A stretch of 64,000 nt of DNA from an uncultured virus (IMG/VR IMGVR_UViG_3300008113_011532) (taxonomy: Duplodnaviria; Heunggongvirae; Uroviricota; Caudoviricetes): the IMG/VR virus record IMGVR_UViG_3300008113_011532, one strand, 5' to 3'. Position 1 is the stretch's first letter; the number at the start of each line of letters is the position of its first letter. The translations under genes were made by a program, and so were the position numbers. Below are positions 26,449 through 62,926 of this stretch, in pieces. The notes under the pieces were generated by a model, which made no database searches, had not been told where the DNA came from, and was given only the letters and a program-made list of their open reading frames with translations.

Positions 26449-26496
26449 ATTATAAACTGTATTTTCGTTATATATTAAGATTGAGATGCCGTTTTT

Positions 26497-28806: not shown

Positions 28807-28856
28807 TATATTTGTCTTATAAAACAAAAAGGGAAGTAAAAAAACTTTATATATAC
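28807..28856 (+). promoter_or_regulatory. Tandem Bacteroidota-type -7 box (TATATTTG) and phage TATATA motif upstream of leader 1
   Basis: tatatttg at 28807-28814; ttatatatac just before the ATG. Confidence 0.6.
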
Positions 28857-28862
28857 AACACA

Positions 28863-28973
28863 ATGAAAGCAACAACACTAAATATGGCAATCGTGAGAAA
28901 CTTGATGGTGAATATTACATTATGTAATATTAGACCAGACGAGGGTTCCAGCCTATTTGTGGATGTCGCATAA
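28863..28973 (+). CDS. Attenuator leader peptide 1 (MKATTLNMAIVRNLMVNITLCNIRPDEGSSLFVDVA)
   Basis: 36 codons; the L M V N I T L C N I R block matches the downstream tRNA set; contains gacgagggttc complementary to the terminator 5' arm. Confidence 0.85.
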   Translation: MKATTLNMAIVRNLMVNITLCNIRPDEGSSLFVDVA

Positions 28974-29035: not shown

Positions 29036-29116
29036 AGATTGAAAAAGGAAGTTGATAAATGTATTTTAGTTTGTGCTAACTGCCATAGAGAAATACACGA
29101 TGAAATTTCCAAATAA
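29036..29116 (+). pseudogene. C-terminal remnant of an HNH endonuclease
   Basis: Translates RLKKEVDKCILVCANCHREIHDEISK* with no start codon. Confidence 0.65.
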
Positions 29117-29762: not shown

Positions 29763-29832
29763 GCCGCGGCTTAGTGGAAAAGAACCGTCTCTCATAAGGA
29801 CGGAAAAGTGAGTTCGAACCTCATACGCGGCA
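29763..29832 (+). tRNA. tRNA-Met(CAT), atypical short D-arm
   Basis: ccgtct-ctCATaa-ggacgg; T-arm gtgag-ttcgaac-ctcat. Confidence 0.65.
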
Positions 29833-31135: not shown

Positions 31136-31156
31136 TATATTTGTTCAGTTCTTTGA
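31136..31156 (+). promoter_or_regulatory. TAnnTTTG promoter followed by boxA-like GTTCTTTGA
   Basis: tatatttg 31136-31143; gttctttga 31148-31156. Confidence 0.55.
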
Positions 31157-31175
31157 GAGAAAGCAATAAATAAAA

Positions 31176-31257
31176 GCTCTTGTGGTGGAATTGGTAGACA
31201 CGCTAGACTTAGGATCTAGTGCCGCAAGGTGTGCGAGTTCGAGTCTCGCCAAGAGTA
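31176..31257 (+). tRNA. tRNA-Leu(TAG)
   Basis: ctaga-ctTAGga-tctag. Confidence 0.9.
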
Positions 31258-31280
31258 CAGAAAAAAAAACGCTTCAAAGC

Positions 31281-31343
31281 TTGTCGGAATGGAAATAATG
31301 ACTATCTTTGAAAAACAATAACAGAACAAAGGTTCTTTGACAT
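31281..31343 (+). promoter_or_regulatory. TTG...TATCTTTG promoter followed by boxA-like GTTCTTTGACAT
   Basis: Motifs at 31281, 31303-31310 and 31332-31343. Confidence 0.6.
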
Positions 31344-31364
31344 ACTAAAACAAAAACAATAAAT

Positions 31365-31445
31365 GCTCCGGTGGTGGAATGGTAGACACGCTCGTTTCAG
31401 AGGCGAGTGCCGCAAGGTGTGAGGGTTCAAGTCCCTTCTGGAGTA
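31365..31445 (+). tRNA. tRNA-Leu(CAG)
   Basis: ctcgt-ttCAGag-gcgag. Confidence 0.9.
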
Positions 31446-31451
31446 CAAAAA

Positions 31452-31525
<74 letters not shown>

Positions 31526-31533
31526 CTAAAAAC

Positions 31534-31605
<72 letters not shown>

Positions 31606-31625
31606 CGAAAAAATGTTCTAAAAAG

Positions 31626-31680
31626 TTTGGTGGAACGAAAAGAAACACTAACTTTGTAAAACAAACGAGGTCTTTGACAT
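31626..31680 (+). promoter_or_regulatory. TTTG...TAACTTTG promoter followed by boxA-like GGTCTTTGACAT
   Basis: Motifs at 31626, 31649-31656 and 31669-31680. Confidence 0.6.
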
Positions 31681-31691
31681 AACAAGAAAAC

Positions 31692-31763
31692 GGCGCCATA
31701 GTTCAAGGGATAGAATAGAAGTTTCCTAAACTTTAGATCCAGGTTCGAATCCTGGTGGGGCCA
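31692..31763 (+). tRNA. tRNA-Arg(CCT)
   Basis: gaagt-ttCCTaa-acttt. Confidence 0.88.
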
Positions 31764-31777
31764 CTAAAAAACAAAAC

Positions 31778-31860
31778 GCGCCGATGGCGAAATTGGTAGA
31801 CGCGCCATCCTGAGGGGGTGGTGTCCTATGGATGTGGGGGTTCAAGTCCCCCTCGGCGTA
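31778..31860 (+). tRNA. tRNA-Leu(GAG)
   Basis: ccatc-ctGAGgg-ggtgg. Confidence 0.88.
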
Positions 31861-31873
31861 CAAAAAACACAAC

Positions 31874-31955
31874 GGCCTTGTGTTGGAAATGGTAGACAAG
31901 CACGTTTGAGGGGCGTGTGCCGAAAGGCGTATGGGTTCAAGTCCCATCAAGGTCA
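31874..31955 (+). tRNA. tRNA-Leu(GAG), second copy
   Basis: cacgt-ttGAGgg-gcgtg. Confidence 0.85.
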
Positions 31956-32003
31956 CAAAAGAATGCTCAGGCAACCCCCTGGTGAAAGCATTCGAAAATA
32001 TAT

Positions 32004-32076
<73 letters not shown>

Positions 32077-32090
32077 CTAAAAAAATACAT

Positions 32091-32163
32091 TGCGCGGTGG
32101 AGAAGTAGGTATCTCGTGAGGCTCATAACCTTAAGATCGGCGGTTCGAGTCCGTCCTGCGCTA
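32091..32163 (+). tRNA. tRNA-fMet(CAT), second copy
   Basis: 1:72 mismatch, tgagg-ctCATaa-cctta. Confidence 0.8.
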
Positions 32164-32283
32164 CAAAAACCCAGGCAACCTCCTGGTAGAAACAGAATGC
32201 TCAGGCAACCCCCTGGTAAAAAGCATTCGAGCTCTTTGAAATGTCAAATACTAAAAATAAAGCTCAGGCGTAATTAACCTGCA

Positions 32284-32413
32284 GCCTGGATGGTTCGAAA
32301 CATCCGATTTGATATGGTGTACTGGGCACGACACCCGCCGCTGAGGTTCGAATCCTCAGGTAAGGAATGGCTACCACGGGAGTAAGATTGGGTTCGATTC
32401 CCTTTATCAGGCC
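32284..32413 (+). ncRNA. Putative structured RNA with three T-loop-like hairpins
   Basis: ggatg-gttcgaaa-catcc, ctgagg-ttcgaat-cctcag and ggg-ttcgatt-ccc, closed by gcctg/caggc. Confidence 0.4.
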
Positions 32414-32510
32414 AAAAGACCAGACAACCCTCTGGCAGCAACGCTAACACAGCACAATGCGGGCTCATACCTGCGGCGTAGTGTGACGGTCAGGAGAGAC
32501 TGACAACCTT

Positions 32511-32586
<76 letters not shown>

Positions 32587-32654
32587 ATCAAAGGTCGCTG
32601 CAACGGGCTGCGAGAGCCGAGGATCGAAATGTTTGCAGACATAGACATCTAGGC

Positions 32655-32727
32655 AGTGTGTTCGTATAGGGGACTAGTACGTCGTTCGCGAAGAACGGAA
32701 ACACGGGTTCGAGTCCCGTACACACAA
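32655..32727 (+). tRNA. tRNA-like gene with a Glu-type body and aberrant anticodon loop
   Basis: Acceptor gtgtgt/acacac, T-arm acggg-ttcgagt-cccgt; loop cgcgaag lacks U33. Confidence 0.5.
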
Positions 32728-32737
32728 CAAAAAATAC

Positions 32738-32810
32738 ACGGGTGTAGCTCAGCTGGTAGAGTAGTGGTCTCCAAAACCATTGGTCGTGGGTTCGAATCCT
32801 ACCTCCCGTG
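32738..32810 (+). tRNA. tRNA-Trp(CCA)
   Basis: gtggt-ctCCAaa-accat. Confidence 0.88.
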
Positions 32811-32812
32811 CT

Positions 32813-33020
32813 AGATTAGTAATCGATATGATGGAGGGAATAGCCATCGCGTGAATGGCCCGACCTTTTGCATCACGGATAGTTGCGCAAACAATACGTG
32901 GACTAGGAGGAAAGCTATAACCGGCAAGGATTAGAAATCAAGTCGGAAAGAAGCAAGTACAGAACCCGAACGGACGAACTTACTAAGTCCAAAGGGTAAG
33001 GGTGTCGACAATGCTAATCT
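32813..33020 (+). ncRNA. Putative ~210-nt ncRNA between two tRNAs
   Basis: Closing helix agattagt/gctaatct plus tcgata/tgtcga; no substantial ORF. Confidence 0.45.
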
Positions 33021-33023
33021 TAA

Positions 33024-33097
33024 GGTCTTGTAGCTCAGTTGGTTAGAGCACTGGTCTCATAAACCAGGGGTCCTCGGATCGTGCCCGAGCAGGACCA
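33024..33097 (+). tRNA. tRNA-Met/Ile2(CAT), elongator type
   Basis: ctggt-ctCATaa-accag. Confidence 0.85.
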
Positions 33098-33113
33098 CAC
33101 CAGTATCTGGTAC

Positions 33114-33923: not shown

Positions 33924-34024
33924 AAAAAACTTATTTTTAGTTTATATATAAAACTAGATGACCTATGGTTCGATTTTATTTTGGACTACATTTTTTTAAT
34001 CCAGTTCCACTTTATATATACTCT

Positions 34025-34660: not shown

Positions 34661-34722
34661 ATCGAAAAAAAGTTCCTATCTTTACAAAACAAAGGAAACG
34701 AAAACTTATATATACAATACTT

Positions 34723-58367: not shown

Positions 58368-59999
58368 TTGATAATGTTCCAAAAAACAATCGCAATCTAT
58401 GGCTCACACGACTCGTCGTTCACATTCATAGACAATTCCGGTCAGCTAAGAATATTCGAGGTCGAAAGATTCACAAAGCAGAGGTATTCTTCGTTCTCCA
58501 AAAGGTTCGACACTCAATCAACCGGAATAAACGATCAGCTTAGGGAAGACTTCATAAACATGTTGAAGGAAAGACTTTTCGACAAAGACATCACAACAGT
58601 ACTTTACGAGGAAGTCTTCGAGGACGACTTCATCTTTCTGAGAAAACACTTCCCAAACGCAAACTTCGTTAAGTGGGACGACCACCACAAATCACACGCA
58701 TACTCAGCAATACAAAACTCCGGTTTCGAAGACTCAATCATATTGTCAATCGACGGAAGTGGGATCAATTCAGGTTCAACAAAGGTATTCGACTACCAGG
58801 ATAAAAAACTCTCACTGATAGACAACCATATGGTGAATCTCGGGCAGGCCTATACAATAAGCACACTACCACTCGTGGATATAACACATCAAAATCCGAA
58901 AGCCGAACTTCTATCCGCAGCTGGTAAATTCATGGGCATATGCGCTTACGGTGATGTCATCGAAGACTGGATTGCGCCTTTCCATGATTTTTATCTCAAT
59001 TTCATAAACTCTTCCTTCGAGGATTCATTGAGGAAGCTAACCCAACGACTAAAGCTGGAAGAGATAAATTTCGACCGAATTTACGAGAACGAGTCTTTCA
59101 ACCTGACAGGTGTCAAAGTGCTCACAGGTAAGAAAGCATACGACTTCGCAGCAACCTCTCAATTCGTGTTCGAAAAAATCGTTCTAAGTCTGGTAGAATT
59201 TTTTGTAGACAAATACAACAAGAACGTAATACTAACAGGAGGTTGCGCACTCAACGTTCTTGCTAACCAAAAGATTTTCGAGTATCTCAACAAAAGAGGA
59301 CTCTCACTCTACGTGCCACCGAATCCTTCAGACTGTGGTATCTCTTACGGAATGTGGATGTCCTACTTCACAGATTTCGAAAGTGGCGAGACTTGCTTTT
59401 CCGGTATTGAAATACTCGACGAAGACAAAATCGAAGTTTACGAAAACAACCACGCATACGAACCACTCACCTACGAATCGGTAGTCGGACACCTCAAGGC
59501 CGGTAAAATAATCGGCATCATCGACGGCAACTCAGAGGTCGGACCAAGAGCCCTCGGCAACCGAAGTATAATTTGCGATCCGTCATACGAGGGAATGAAA
59601 GACATACTGAATAGTAAAGTAAAGTTCCGAGAGTGGTTCAGGCCCTTTGCGCCTGTATGCACAGATGAGTACATGGAAACATACTTCGAAAACGCGTTCA
59701 GTTCAAAGTACATGACTTACGCACCTAAAGTCAAAGAAGAGTTTCGAAAACTATTACCTTCAATCACACACGCGGACGGTACCTCAAGGCTACAGACCGT
59801 TCACAGCGACGGAAGTCATTTCCATAGCATACTGACAGAGCTGAAAAGGCAAGGGCACATACCAGTAATACTCAACACATCATTCAACATAAAAGGAAGA
59901 CCGATACTTACGTCTTTGGAAGACGCATTTTACGTACTCGACAACACGCAACTGGATCTTCTAATACATAACGGTAAAATATATTCGAAGAAAGATTAG
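58368..59999 (+). CDS. Carbamoyltransferase (NodU/CmcH family)
   Basis: HDSS, EVERF, HHKSHA, GKFMG, GGCALN, EVGPRALGNRS, REWFRPFAP and LNTSFN motifs. Confidence 0.92.
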   Translation: MIMFQKTIAIYGSHDSSFTFIDNSGQLRIFEVERFTKQRYSSFSKRFDTQSTGINDQLREDFINMLKERLFDKDITTVLYEEVFEDDFIFLRKHFPNANFVKWDDHHKSHAYSAIQNSGFEDSIILSIDGSGINSGSTKVFDYQDKKLSLIDNHMVNLGQAYTISTLPLVDITHQNPKAELLSAAGKFMGICAYGDVIEDWIAPFHDFYLNFINSSFEDSLRKLTQRLKLEEINFDRIYENESFNLTGVKVLTGKKAYDFAATSQFVFEKIVLSLVEFFVDKYNKNVILTGGCALNVLANQKIFEYLNKRGLSLYVPPNPSDCGISYGMWMSYFTDFESGETCFSGIEILDEDKIEVYENNHAYEPLTYESVVGHLKAGKIIGIIDGNSEVGPRALGNRSIICDPSYEGMKDILNSKVKFREWFRPFAPVCTDEYMETYFENAFSSKYMTYAPKVKEEFRKLLPSITHADGTSRLQTVHSDGSHFHSILTELKRQGHIPVILNTSFNIKGRPILTSLEDAFYVLDNTQLDLLIHNGKIYSKKD

Positions 60000-60049: not shown

Positions 60050-60121
60050 ATGAAAGCATCTGTAAACATATCAAGCTCATCAAGTCGCTCATCAGCGGCC
60101 GAGGTCCGATTGTGTTTATAG
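60050..60121 (+). CDS. Attenuator leader peptide 4 (MKASVNISSSSSRSSAAEVRLCL)
   Basis: SSSSSRSS block matches the downstream Arg(ACG) and four Ser tRNAs; ccgagg pairs with the terminator arm cctcgg. Confidence 0.88.
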   Translation: MKASVNISSSSSRSSAAEVRLCL

Positions 60122-60256: not shown

Positions 60257-60347
60257 GGAGAAATAAGAGCAGTGTGGACTAAGCTCGGCGCACTTGAAAT
60301 GCGTAGGCCCTCGAGGTGTCTGGGTTCGAGCCCCAGTTTCTCCGCCA
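60257..60347 (+). tRNA. tRNA-Ser(TGA)
   Basis: gcgca-ctTGAaa-tgcgt; long V-arm, G73, CCA. Confidence 0.85.
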
Positions 60348-61065: not shown

Positions 61066-61382
61066 TGATAAAAAAACTGATATACACGATTGCCGCCATA
61101 GTAACACTTTTCTTAGCAGAACCTACACAGGCTCAGAGCGGTTGGCAGGCAGGGCAATACTACCAATACGAGGGCCAAAGAACAATAGACTGCGATCCTT
61201 TCTGGGTCAAGGCCACACCATTCGGCATCGAAAGAAGATGCAGAATACTACAATGGGAAAAGCAATACTATACAGGAAACATACAAGTCTGGAACGGTTG
61301 GCAGTGGGTTTCACAATGGCAGACTACCTGGGCATGGTACTGTTGGTGGGGACCGTGGTACTTCCAGTACTCAGCACGATAG
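61065..61382 (+). CDS. Secreted Trp/Gln-rich small protein
   Basis: Signal peptide MIKKLIYTIAAIVTLFLA; many Trp residues in the C-terminal half. Confidence 0.65.
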   Translation: MIKKLIYTIAAIVTLFLAEPTQAQSGWQAGQYYQYEGQRTIDCDPFWVKATPFGIERRCRILQWEKQYYTGNIQVWNGWQWVSQWQTTWAWYCWWGPWYFQYSAR

Positions 61383-61500
61383 TTTTTTTACTTATTTTCA
61401 ATAAAATACAAAAAGAGAGAAAAAAACTTTTATATATAATCAACAAGTAAAGGAAAAACACCTATATTTGTAGAGTAAACAAAGACTAAAAACTGAAACA

Positions 61501-61587
61501 ATGAAAGCAACATTCAAAATAGAGGCCATAGGGTATGCGTATGAGGCGGGACGCCACATATCCGGACTGACTTTGTCTTTTGAGTAG
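61501..61587 (+). CDS. Attenuator leader peptide 5 (MKATFKIEAIGYAYEAGRHISGLTLSFE)
   Basis: IEAIGYAYEAG block matches the downstream Glu/Tyr/Ile(TAT)/Gly/Ala tRNAs; cggactg pairs with cagtctg. Confidence 0.88.
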   Translation: MKATFKIEAIGYAYEAGRHISGLTLSFE

Positions 61588-61608
61588 TTGATATATTACG
61601 ATATTGAG

Positions 61609-61640
61609 AAGCCCAGTCTGAGAAACAGACTGGGCTTTTT
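61609..61640 (+). terminator. Attenuator terminator 5
   Basis: aagcccagtctg-agaaa-cagactgggctt plus U-tract. Confidence 0.88.
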
Positions 61641-61647
61641 CGTTTAT

Positions 61648-61721
61648 GGTCCGTTCGTCTAGCGGTTTAGGACATCTTCCTTTCACGAAGAAGATCACGG
61701 GTTCGAATCCCGTACGGATCA
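61648..61721 (+). tRNA. tRNA-Glu(TTC)
   Basis: tcttc-ctTTCac-gaaga. Confidence 0.9.
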
Positions 61722-61744
61722 CAAAAAAAAAAAATGAAAAATAC

Positions 61745-61827
61745 TGGAAGGTGGCCGAGTGGTTAAAGGCGGCAGACTGTAAATCTGCTCTCGAAAGAGT
61801 ACGGGGGTTCGAATCCCTCCCTTCCAA
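61745..61827 (+). tRNA. tRNA-Tyr(GTA)
   Basis: gcaga-ctGTAaa-tctgc; long V-arm. Confidence 0.9.
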
Positions 61828-61833
61828 CAACAT

Positions 61834-61907
61834 GGTCCGTTAGTGAAGCGGCTTAACACGTCTCCCTTTCACGGAGAAGATCACGGGTTCGAATCCCGTA
61901 CGGACTA
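61834..61907 (+). tRNA. tRNA-Glu(TTC), second copy
   Basis: tctcc-ctTTCac-ggaga. Confidence 0.9.
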
Positions 61908-61914
61908 CAGAAAC

Positions 61915-61988
61915 TGGTAAGTAGCTTAGACGGTAGAAGCACGTGTCTTATACACACGAGATAGTGGGTTCGATACCCACCTTACCAA
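61915..61988 (+). tRNA. tRNA-Ile(TAT)
   Basis: cgtgt-ctTATac-acacg. Confidence 0.85.
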
Positions 61989-61995
61989 CAGAAAA

Positions 61996-62067
61996 GCAGG
62001 TATCGTACAACGGTTAGTACAGGGCACTTCCAATGCTCAGATGTCGGTTCGATTCCGGTTACCTGCA
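61996..62067 (+). tRNA. tRNA-Gly(TCC)
   Basis: gggca-ctTCCaa-tgctc. Confidence 0.88.
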
Positions 62068-62127
62068 CAAAAAGACTTAAAAGTCCTGCGTACACAGGAC
62101 GCGAGAAGGTTAGTCTTCCTTCTATCC

Positions 62128-62201
62128 GGGGCAGCATGTACCAAGGCAGGCGAGGAACACTTGCAATGTTCCTGTGGTGGGTTCGATTTCCACCTGCTCC
62201 A
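62128..62201 (+). tRNA. tRNA-Ala(TGC)
   Basis: gaaca-ctTGCaa-tgttc; G3:U70; atypical D-arm. Confidence 0.75.
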
Positions 62202-62226
62202 CGGAAACAAAAAATAAAAAGAAGAT

Positions 62227-62370
62227 ATGAAGAAAAGGACAGTTATCGAGGGCACAATGAGATCCAGCAGGGAAACGATGAGAAGAGAAGTAGAAACCAA
62301 CATCTCAATACTGGAGGCGATAAAAAAAATTGTGAGAAGGATTAAACAAAAGAGAAACGTAGAGATATAA
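62227..62370 (+). CDS. 47-aa basic hypothetical peptide inside the tRNA cassette
   Basis: [11 protein letters not shown]... read directly from the sequence. Confidence 0.4.
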
Positions 62371-62381
62371 ACTTTACAAAC

Positions 62382-62454
62382 GCGAGAATAGCTCAGTTGG
62401 TAGAGCGCCACCTTGCCAAGGTGGAGGTCGCGGGTTCGAATCCCGTTTCTCGCT
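62382..62454 (+). tRNA. tRNA-Gly(GCC)
   Basis: ccacc-ttGCCaa-ggtgg. Confidence 0.92.
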
Positions 62455-62563
62455 CTAAGCCCCGAAAGGGGCTTTCTCGTTTAGTAGCGTTTTGATAATG
62501 CGGAAAATTTACTATTCGATTACCGGAAAAAATACATACATTTGTAAAAAAGAAACAAACCAA

Positions 62564-62926
62564 ATGAAGAGCAGAAGAAAAGCAACGAAGGCAGAACTCA
62601 TAAGAGAGAGCAAAGATCACCCAGGATACTTCAAATACAAAGTGACCATAGAGGAAGTCGACGGAACAATCCACGACGTCCCAGCGTACGGAAAAGACAT
62701 GCAGGACGCAATCGAAAGACTCGTCTGGTCCGAGAGAATAGAGAAGGTGACGAACAAAAAAGGAATAATGCCGGTGTTCGCCGCACTGCTATTAGGTGTC
62801 GTTGCGGTATCGGGCATGATTGGCGTCATAAAGAACAACCCGTTGTGGGTCTTAGGCGGTCTCGGCGTGGCCGGAGTCGCGATGGCCATAAGCAACCACG
62901 TGAACAGCTACCTACACAAAGAATGA
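62564..62926 (+). CDS. Membrane hypothetical protein
   Basis: PAYGKDMQDA motif; two C-terminal TM helices. Confidence 0.6.
   Translation: MKSRRKATKAELIRESKDHPGYFKYKVTIEEVDGTIHDVPAYGKDMQDAIERLVWSERIEKVTNKKGIMPVFAALLLGVVAVSGMIGVIKNNPLWVLGGLGVAGVAMAISNHVNSYLHKE

Follow-up and report, generated by a model that had tools for sequence, protein, structure and literature searches.

Why large phages carry dozens of tRNA genes, and when these genes are used, is still debated. The locus described here gives the question a concrete form: what is a short open reading frame (ORF) doing between a promoter-like box and an intrinsic terminator, directly in front of seven tRNA genes? It lies near the end of a 64,000-nucleotide stretch of DNA from an uncultured virus (IMG/VR record IMGVR_UViG_3300008113_011532, Caudoviricetes), here called the window. 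On the plus strand, its parts follow one another in the order TATATTTG box, 28-codon ORF (leader 5), intrinsic terminator, seven tRNA genes together with an ORF of 47 amino acids (aa), and closing hairpin (Table 1). We consider it likely that this locus, hereafter unit 5, is a ribosome-mediated leader-peptide transcription attenuator that controls the seven phage tRNA genes and makes their supply follow demand. The phage would probably make these tRNAs mainly when ribosomes read the matching codons slowly. Such an attenuator had been proposed by an earlier interpretation of the letters alone, the sequence-only reading, and our analysis supports it: the testable predictions that a codon-matched leader-peptide attenuator makes at the sequence level all came out as expected.

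Leader codons and the tRNA cassette

Eleven consecutive codons of leader 5 (61519–61551), which spell IEAIGYAYEAG and are hereafter called the run, had been read as all encoding amino acids of the cassette, and both their coordinates and their sequence were confirmed. Under simple wobble rules, 10 of the 11 are read by tRNAs of the cassette. Given the composition of the 43 long ORFs of the window, an 11-residue run drawn from A, E, G, I and Y is expected at 2.2e-6 per position; two were seen among the 13,885 in-frame positions of those ORFs. The three Ile codons of leader 5 are all ATA, ahead of a tRNA-Ile(UAU), whereas those of leader 1 (28863–28973) are ATC, ATT and ATT, ahead of two tRNA-Ile(GAU) genes, just as the sequence-only reading had stated. 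Because ATA makes up 48% of the Ile codons in the genes of the phage, the Ile evidence from the window by itself is modest (odds of about 0.016).

Unit 5 is one of five leader–terminator–tRNA units in the window, whose leaders start at 28863, 34723, 56412, 60050 and 61501. Other leaders match their tRNAs in the same way, for example PQDQDQP before Gln, Gln, Asp, Pro and Asp tRNAs, and KHKHF.K..KWF.KK before His, Phe, Lys, Trp, Lys and His tRNAs. When every leader was scored against every cluster, its own cluster was the best for all five, and the true assignment ranked first among the 120 permutations. Codon choice is also skewed. The five leaders hold 17 codons served by G34 tRNAs, and 14 of these end in T where the genes would predict 3.3 (p 4e-8); codons served by U34 tRNAs show no bias (14 of 29, against 15.9 expected). 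The preference for T-ending G34 codons agrees with the published argument (PMC1183508) that sensitive attenuators are predicted to use synonymous codons of low usage.

Leaders follow their cassettes in distant relatives

A blastn search of 61400–62500 against GenBank phages gave matches through tRNA genes only, one of which led to LR745206.1. The distant set was assembled from an IMG/VR search for terminator arms, from the tRNAs of the matching records and from four GenBank records whose tRNA regions were fetched; of the 16 loci retrieved by the terminator-pattern scan, 13 lacked tRNAs and were set aside. Units were called by rules of our own, namely a terminator at most 260 nt before a tRNA and then the longest ORF of 12–45 codons ending just before that terminator. 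This pipeline first yielded 31 units, the five of the window among them, and then a further 17. It chose the wrong ORF in three of the first 31, two of which by eye have Gln-run leaders before Gln tRNAs.

The assignment of leaders to clusters held up in these genomes. In the first four other huge-phage genomes, the true assignment ranked 15 of 40,320, 2 of 5,040, 1 of 24 and 1 of 5,040, and in the remaining three 1 of 5,040, 1 of 6 and 1 of 5,040. Where cassettes differ, leaders differ with them. A run of seven Gln codons precedes four Gln tRNAs, a Leu-rich leader precedes five Leu tRNAs, MIIRMRIIR stands before Arg, Ile and Met tRNAs, and KKKK before three Lys tRNAs. In four genomes (G001, G002, G003 and W01), the Glu/Tyr and the Ile(UAU)/Gly/Ala tRNAs form two separate promoter–leader–terminator units, the first with a Tyr/Glu-rich leader of the AYYYEGE type and the second with an Ile/Gly/Ala-rich leader of the ISIAIIGGGAGA type; in the lineage of the window, the same tRNAs sit in one unit with one mixed leader. 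In another genome (W04), the leader run IAIVEIAVIGGAEEGV precedes a Glu, Ala, Ile, Val, Gly, Glu cassette.

Matching at the level of the Ile isoacceptor, claimed earlier from leaders 1 and 5, was borne out across the clade. Over 47 units, leaders of clusters with only Ile(UAU) contain 15 AUA and 4 AUY codons, and those of clusters with only Ile(GAU) contain 3 and 12 (p 0.0014). The choice between AGR and CGN codons for Arg follows the isoacceptor present in the same way (8 and 0 versus 2 and 14; p 6e-5; 47 units).

Two further features of these cassettes were observed. In the window, 29060–29116, downstream of terminator 1 and ahead of the first tRNA in cluster 1, resembles by eye the C-terminal end of an HNH endonuclease, and an intact HNH-like ORF lies among the tRNAs of LR745206.1 (L001 2711–3147); homing endonucleases may shuffle these tRNA cassettes. 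A conserved stretch of about 100 nt that is tRNA-like and uncalled sits between the Glu/Tyr terminator and the first tRNA-Glu in three loci of distant relatives (L003 1545–1640, L013 1535–1635 and L014 1545–1640), with nothing comparable in the window.

Conservation of leader 5 in close relatives

Close relatives of the locus were retrieved through a pattern lying outside the run, and 14 metagenome loci and three viral-contig loci were kept; relatives without the patterns used stay hidden from such a search. Aligned together with the window, they gave a set (A2) of 17 distinct sequences. L043, whose leader carries a 1-nt deletion, was kept out of the codon table, which covers the other 16. A separate scan of genome contigs with a pattern for the run gave no matches. 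Two loci (L038 and L039), on one 7,038-bp IMG/VR contig, show the same leader and cassette twice in inverted orientation, which may be an assembly fold-back.

The ATG and the TAG are invariant in all 16 intact-frame sequences. The run reads IEAIGYAYEAG in 14 of them and IEAIGYTYEAG in two. Within it, 6 of the 11 third positions differ between sequences, as opposed to a single one of the 22 first and second positions (Fisher p 0.0025; 16 sequences). The flanking codons are without such a third-position bias (3 of 5 against 5 of 10 in codons 2–6, and 2 of 4 against 6 of 8 in codons 18–21). Both ATA codons and both TAT codons of the run are invariant in 16 of 16 sequences, while the third positions of the Glu, Ala and Gly codons vary. 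Because third positions vary and the flanks drift, the run is kept as codons in frame, and not as a peptide or as plain RNA. This is the pattern expected of regulatory codons. The invariance of 61565–61590 in the same alignment is imposed by the search pattern, although the stretch is also conserved in a smaller set that was found through the run.

Promoter-like box and RNA structure

The -7 consensus of Bacteroidota promoters is TAnnTTTG. The box upstream of leader 5 fits it exactly, and its columns are invariant in all 17 aligned sequences. Exact copies stand 23–49 nt upstream of the start codons of four of the five window leaders; in the window as a whole the motif is not enriched (34 observed, 30 expected). 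A pattern scan found no further TAnnTTTG box between 61471 and 62536. No Shine-Dalgarno sequence is evident at the leader.

Some other upstream sequences were recorded along the way. The motif CTTTATATATAC occurs exactly at 28845–28856, 34010–34021 and, on the minus strand, 26468–26479 (three observed against 0.04 expected), with variants by eye just upstream of leaders (near 34703, 56398 and 61428) and another in LR745206.1 that directly precedes a leaderless tRNA-Met. It is a candidate phage-specific promoter beside the host-type box. In the Leu/Val/Thr/Arg/Met/Ala/Ser/Trp tRNA cluster at 31136–33098, TAnnTTTG stands directly before tRNAs (31136, 31303 and 31649). This cluster is without a leader–terminator unit, and not all tRNAs of the phage would be attenuated. 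In LR745206.1, the counterparts of its tRNAs follow an Asn/Ile leader in one long run.

The hairpin behind leader 5 has an energy of about -24.1 to -24.6 kcal/mol and ends 8 nt before tRNA-Glu. Across the 17 sequences, 95.9% of its alignment cells are paired, with one compensatory pair (A-U in nine, G-C in four and G-U in four). The leader folds at -50.1 kcal/mol against -34.2 ± 4.1 for shuffled sequences (z -3.9; 0 of 200 as good). The minimum-energy fold of the naked leader (-48.7 kcal/mol) consists of a helix between 61508–61524 and 61571–61590, that is, between regions 1 and 2, and of the terminator. Together with its inner hairpins, the helix is paired in 84% of cells in the relatives. 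One of its pairs, 61518:61579, is C-G in 11 sequences, A-U in five and unpaired in one, and the covariation score observed for the helix was reached by none of 500 shuffles. The inner hairpins (61531–61537/61557–61563 and 61545–61548/61552–61555) were considered as parts of the unit and dropped, being paired in 76–81% of cells in the relatives.

The sequence-only reading had also paired cggactg (61563–61569) with cagtctg (61614–61620). This pairing exists, with seven pairs including one G-U, and it appears in the minimum-energy fold when the 3' arm of the terminator is omitted. With that arm omitted, each of three scenarios with a stalled ribosome gives the antiterminator as the fold of lowest energy. 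It comprises 61563–61569/61614–61620, 61572–61574/61609–61611 and 61576–61577/61606–61607, and so occupies the 5' arm of the terminator. In the 17 sequences 89.9% of its cells are paired, and the core 61564–61569 pairs in all 17, an invariance that the search pattern partly forces. Beyond unit 5, in five genomes, the 3' part of a leader pairs better with the 5' arm of its own terminator than with those of the other units (identity ranks 1 of 120, 7 of 5,040, 22 of 5,040, 1 of 24 and 14 of 5,040). Of 28 units tested, 27 have their upstream arm in the final 56 nt of the ORF, behind the run. From the stop codon of leader 5 (61585–61587), the distance to the stem is 18 nt for the extended stem and 21 nt for the core, and it is 17–35 nt in 30 units.

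Proposed mechanism and alternatives

The leader is predicted to be translated, the hairpin to terminate transcription, and stalling on the run to free region 2 for the antiterminator, which would set the direction of the response. Transcription would begin from the box at 61463–61470, and a ribosome would start on the 28-codon leader. Were the matching charged tRNAs scarce, decoding of AUA, GAR, GCN, GGR and UAU at 61519–61551 would slow, and the ribosome would stall on or before region 1. This would leave 61563–61577 free to pair with 61606–61620, the terminator would be blocked, and the polymerase would enter the tRNA genes. With fast decoding, the ribosome would cover region 2 and the stop codon, 61606–61620 would pair with 61626–61640, and transcription would stop 8 nt before tRNA-Glu. 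The result would be a negative feedback that supplies tRNA on demand, because the product relieves the signal. The tRNAs would be reachable by read-through only, since the terminator ends too close upstream of them to leave space for a further promoter and no promoter box lies inside the cassette. The phage would have five such units, each tuned to its own tRNA set.

Several observations count against this model. In the leader itself, simple wobble rules let the cassette tRNAs read only 14 of the 27 codons that follow the start; GCC (61525) is not read by a UGC anticodon under these rules, leader 5 holds no GGY codon for tRNA-Gly(GCC), and 2 of the 16 intact-frame sequences have Thr (ACA) in the run with no Thr tRNA called downstream. 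In unit 5, the antiterminator taken alone is no better than shuffles (-10.5 against -9.7 ± 2.4 kcal/mol; z -0.3, p 0.33), and compensatory changes in it are absent from the 17 sequences. Scored alone it reaches -8.9 kcal/mol, compared with -24.6 kcal/mol for the terminator, and its own terminator arm beats the next best arm by 0.4 kcal/mol. Elsewhere in the clade, 3 of the 17 units in W02–W04 match poorly (own fractions 0.02–0.09), and 17 of 44 Ser codons are AGY before clusters with only UCN-reading Ser tRNAs (for example window 60050–60121 and L018 3783–3860), served by no tRNA called in the cluster. Units across genomes share ancestry, which makes the pooled p-values generous. The model also assumes that transcription and translation are coupled closely enough in the host. 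Finally, a ribosome at a stop codon can repress a terminator 18–21 nt away in E. coli (PMC4824070), which would reverse the sign of the response.

That reversal is the core of the alternative that survives best, although we regard it as unlikely. A fast ribosome arriving at the stop codon would block the hairpin and allow read-through, and a stalled ribosome would lead to termination, so that tRNAs would be expressed only when the codons already decode well, as a competence check or positive feedback. The spacing between stop codon and stem in unit 5 and in the 30 units fits such occlusion. According to PMC4824070, E. coli ribosomes repress, in part or completely, terminators that follow a stop codon at a distance of less than about 30 bp; termination efficiency was about 0.12 with a 17-bp spacing in one series and about 0.8 with 18 bp in a second. 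The weakness of the unit 5 antiterminator, taken alone, is also in its favour. Yet occlusion needs no complementarity between leader and terminator, and complementarity specific to the own terminator is present in five genomes. The ORF also stops before the hairpin, unlike the layout of pyrBI, and positive feedback on scarce tRNAs would be without obvious use.

A second alternative, somewhat less probable still, places the effect after transcription. Pausing on the matched codons would alter the processing or stability of the tRNA precursor, for instance through access of RNases to the 5' leader, and the hairpin would be a stabilizer or a leaky terminator with no antiterminator switch. In favour of this, the run is clearly selected at the codon level, 8 nt separate the terminator from the mature 5' end of tRNA-Glu, the cut site of RNase P, and covariation in the antiterminator is absent. 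However, the hairpin has every feature of an intrinsic terminator and is paired in 95.9% of cells across relatives, and the complementarity to the own arm would be left unexplained. We know of no precedent for a leader acting in this way on tRNA precursors.

That there is no regulation at all, with a chance or ordinary small ORF, a hairpin that ends a small transcript, constitutive leak-through and a codon match that is coincidental or follows from composition, is very improbable. In its favour, the intergenic DNA of phages often holds short ORFs and terminators, 13 of the 27 leader codons are unmatched and the peptide is known from sequence alone. Against it, the true assignment comes first or close to first in each of the eight genomes, conservation at the codon level is confined to the run and does not extend to the remainder of the peptide, and leader content changes with cassette content, with matching isoacceptor boxes.

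If demand-driven attenuation is correct, tRNA supply in these phages is regulated cassette by cassette through the decoding speed of the codons served, and phage tRNAs are directly linked to host tRNA shortage. A textbook mechanism would gain a new kind of target gene and reach Bacteroidota-type hosts. The leaders would be natural, compact sensors for the decoding of specific codons and would annotate themselves, showing which codons the phage treats as limiting. A broader and more tentative idea, which we hold to be possible but would not yet favour, is that the phage clade carries a bank of codon-resolved sensors, with every cassette gated by a leader in its own codons down to the isoacceptor, that detects which host tRNAs become limiting in infection and replaces exactly those. 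The limitation may stem from the codon demand of the phage, from host shut-off or from tRNA-cutting defences. Such a bank would be the first known transcription attenuation system for tRNA genes and a regulated counter-measure to tRNA depletion.

The cassette and its setting

Table 1. Features of unit 5 in the window.
Feature	Position	Strand	Details
Promoter-like box	61463–61470	+	TATATTTG; 31 nt upstream of leader start codon
Leader ORF	61501–61587	+	28 codons + stop; encodes MKATFKIEAIGYAYEAGRHISGLTLSFE
Region 1	61508–61524	+	pairs with 61571–61590 in naked-leader fold
Regulatory run	61519–61551	+	codons 7–17, ATA GAG GCC ATA GGG TAT GCG TAT GAG GCG GGA (IEAIGYAYEAG)
Region 2	61563–61590	+	last 8 codons + stop; 61563–61577 is the antiterminator upstream arm, 61571–61590 pairs with region 1
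Intrinsic terminator	61606–61645	+	15-bp stem 61606–61620/61626–61640, 7 G-C; loop AGAAA (5 nt); T-rich tail
Region 3	61606–61620	+	terminator 5' arm
Region 4	61626–61640	+	terminator 3' arm
tRNA-Glu (UUC)	61648–61722	+	ARAGORN and Rfam
tRNA-Tyr (GUA)	61745–61828	+	ARAGORN and Rfam
tRNA-Glu (UUC), second	61834–61908	+	ARAGORN and Rfam
tRNA-Ile (UAU)	61915–61989	+	reads AUA; ARAGORN and Rfam
tRNA-Gly (UCC)	61996–62068	+	ARAGORN and Rfam
tRNA-Ala (UGC)	62131–62202	+	atypical; ARAGORN only
47-aa ORF	62227–62370	+	very basic; between tRNA-Ala and tRNA-Gly (GCC); ORF list
tRNA-Gly (GCC)	62382–62455	+	ARAGORN and Rfam
Terminator-like closing hairpin	62457–62474	+	7 pairs, 5 G-C, then TCTCGTTT

Six of the seven cassette tRNAs called by ARAGORN were confirmed with the Rfam tRNA model at its gathering score. 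The seventh, tRNA-Ala, had no Rfam tRNA match when the threshold was relaxed to E≤1. Inspection by eye shows a G3:U70 pair, a normal T arm and an odd D region. Relatives retain this gene, with an ARAGORN call of Ala(tgc) in 14 of 17 relative rows, and its product may be an unusual tRNA. The 47-aa ORF had tblastn matches in nine loci of relatives, eight over 44–47 residues with 50–96% identity and a ninth over 19 residues with 79% identity, and we therefore regard it as a real small gene co-transcribed with the tRNAs.

In the whole window, ARAGORN called 41 tRNA genes, and Rfam gave 41 tRNA matches. Rfam matches at 60257–60344 and 29763–29832 are absent from the ARAGORN calls; the former is by eye a tRNA-Ser(UGA), which would read the TCA codons of the Ser/Arg-rich leader at 60050–60121. 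Protein genes of the window include NAPRTase, transaldolase, an M42 peptidase and a carbamoyltransferase (58374–59996), the last of which, used as a query, retrieved no relative in IMG/VR. For a 740-aa protein of the window, the only matches in the GenBank phage collection are five records of uncultured phages, 634–735 kb long. These presumably belong to the genomes of PMC7162821, a paper that assigns those larger than 634 kb to a single clade whose predicted hosts are Bacteroidetes. Because of these matches and this placement, the window appears to come from a very large phage related to the >634-kb clade.

Traces of the locus were also seen in public data. Fourteen DNA runs from at least 11 studies contain 43–74% of the sampled words of 61300–62600 and are labelled as lake, freshwater, riverine, aquaculture and fungus metagenomes, and pieces identical to this stretch were found in two public runs (X3 and X5). 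Most of its matches in four public contig sets are tRNA look-alikes from other organisms. A contig from an RNA library covers 61525–61621 and joins 61832; it cannot show transcription, transcript ends or read-through, and supports neither side.

Comparison with known systems

A tRNA-Phe attenuator of E. coli was considered as a precedent and dropped, as pheV of strain K-12 has a plain promoter directly before the tRNA and no ORF-plus-terminator unit. A literature search, with subscription journals and older literature largely outside its reach, found no description of leader-peptide attenuation of tRNA genes. The huge-phage paper PMC7162821 counts tRNAs, and the words attenuat*, leader and terminator are absent from it. 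No Rfam leader family matches leader 5; the T-box model matched nowhere in the window at its gathering score, and a search of 61380–61660 at E≤10 likewise gave no T-box.

In pyrBI, the leader ORF runs into the terminator hairpin. Unit 5 shares with this type of attenuator a leader ORF beside an intrinsic terminator and a decisive position of the ribosome, as far as the model holds; unlike pyrBI, leader 5 ends 18–21 nt before the hairpin and has a separate antiterminator complementarity. A T-box binds uncharged tRNA directly, and the pheST leader controls a synthetase. Like these two, leader 5 would regulate the translation machinery by the state of specific tRNAs, but the genes controlled by unit 5 are tRNA genes and not a synthetase.

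Multivalent attenuators are closer still in their codon content. The ilvGMEDA leader covers Leu, Val and Ile, and the thr leader covers Thr and Ile. Mixed codons, with a predicted response to any of them, are common to these systems and leader 5. Here, however, five amino acids are mixed, and the mix follows the cassette and is rewritten when cassettes merge or split.

The class I attenuators (trpL, hisL, pheL and leuL; general mechanism in PMC1183508) share with unit 5 a promoter, a short ORF with regulatory codons and a decision made by ribosome position, which here is predicted. As in that class, the ORF of unit 5 stands between promoter and terminator, contains a run of cognate codons and is followed by an intrinsic terminator. 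Rarely used synonymous codons as sensors are likewise common to the class and to the leaders of the window. Mutually exclusive antiterminator and terminator structures also belong to the class; for unit 5, such an antiterminator is predicted. The differences lie in the target and in the loop. Class I attenuators control biosynthetic enzymes, or synthetases, whereas unit 5 precedes seven tRNA genes and a 47-aa ORF in what appears to be a phage of Bacteroidota-like hosts, and the decoding-speed signal would here be relieved directly by the product.

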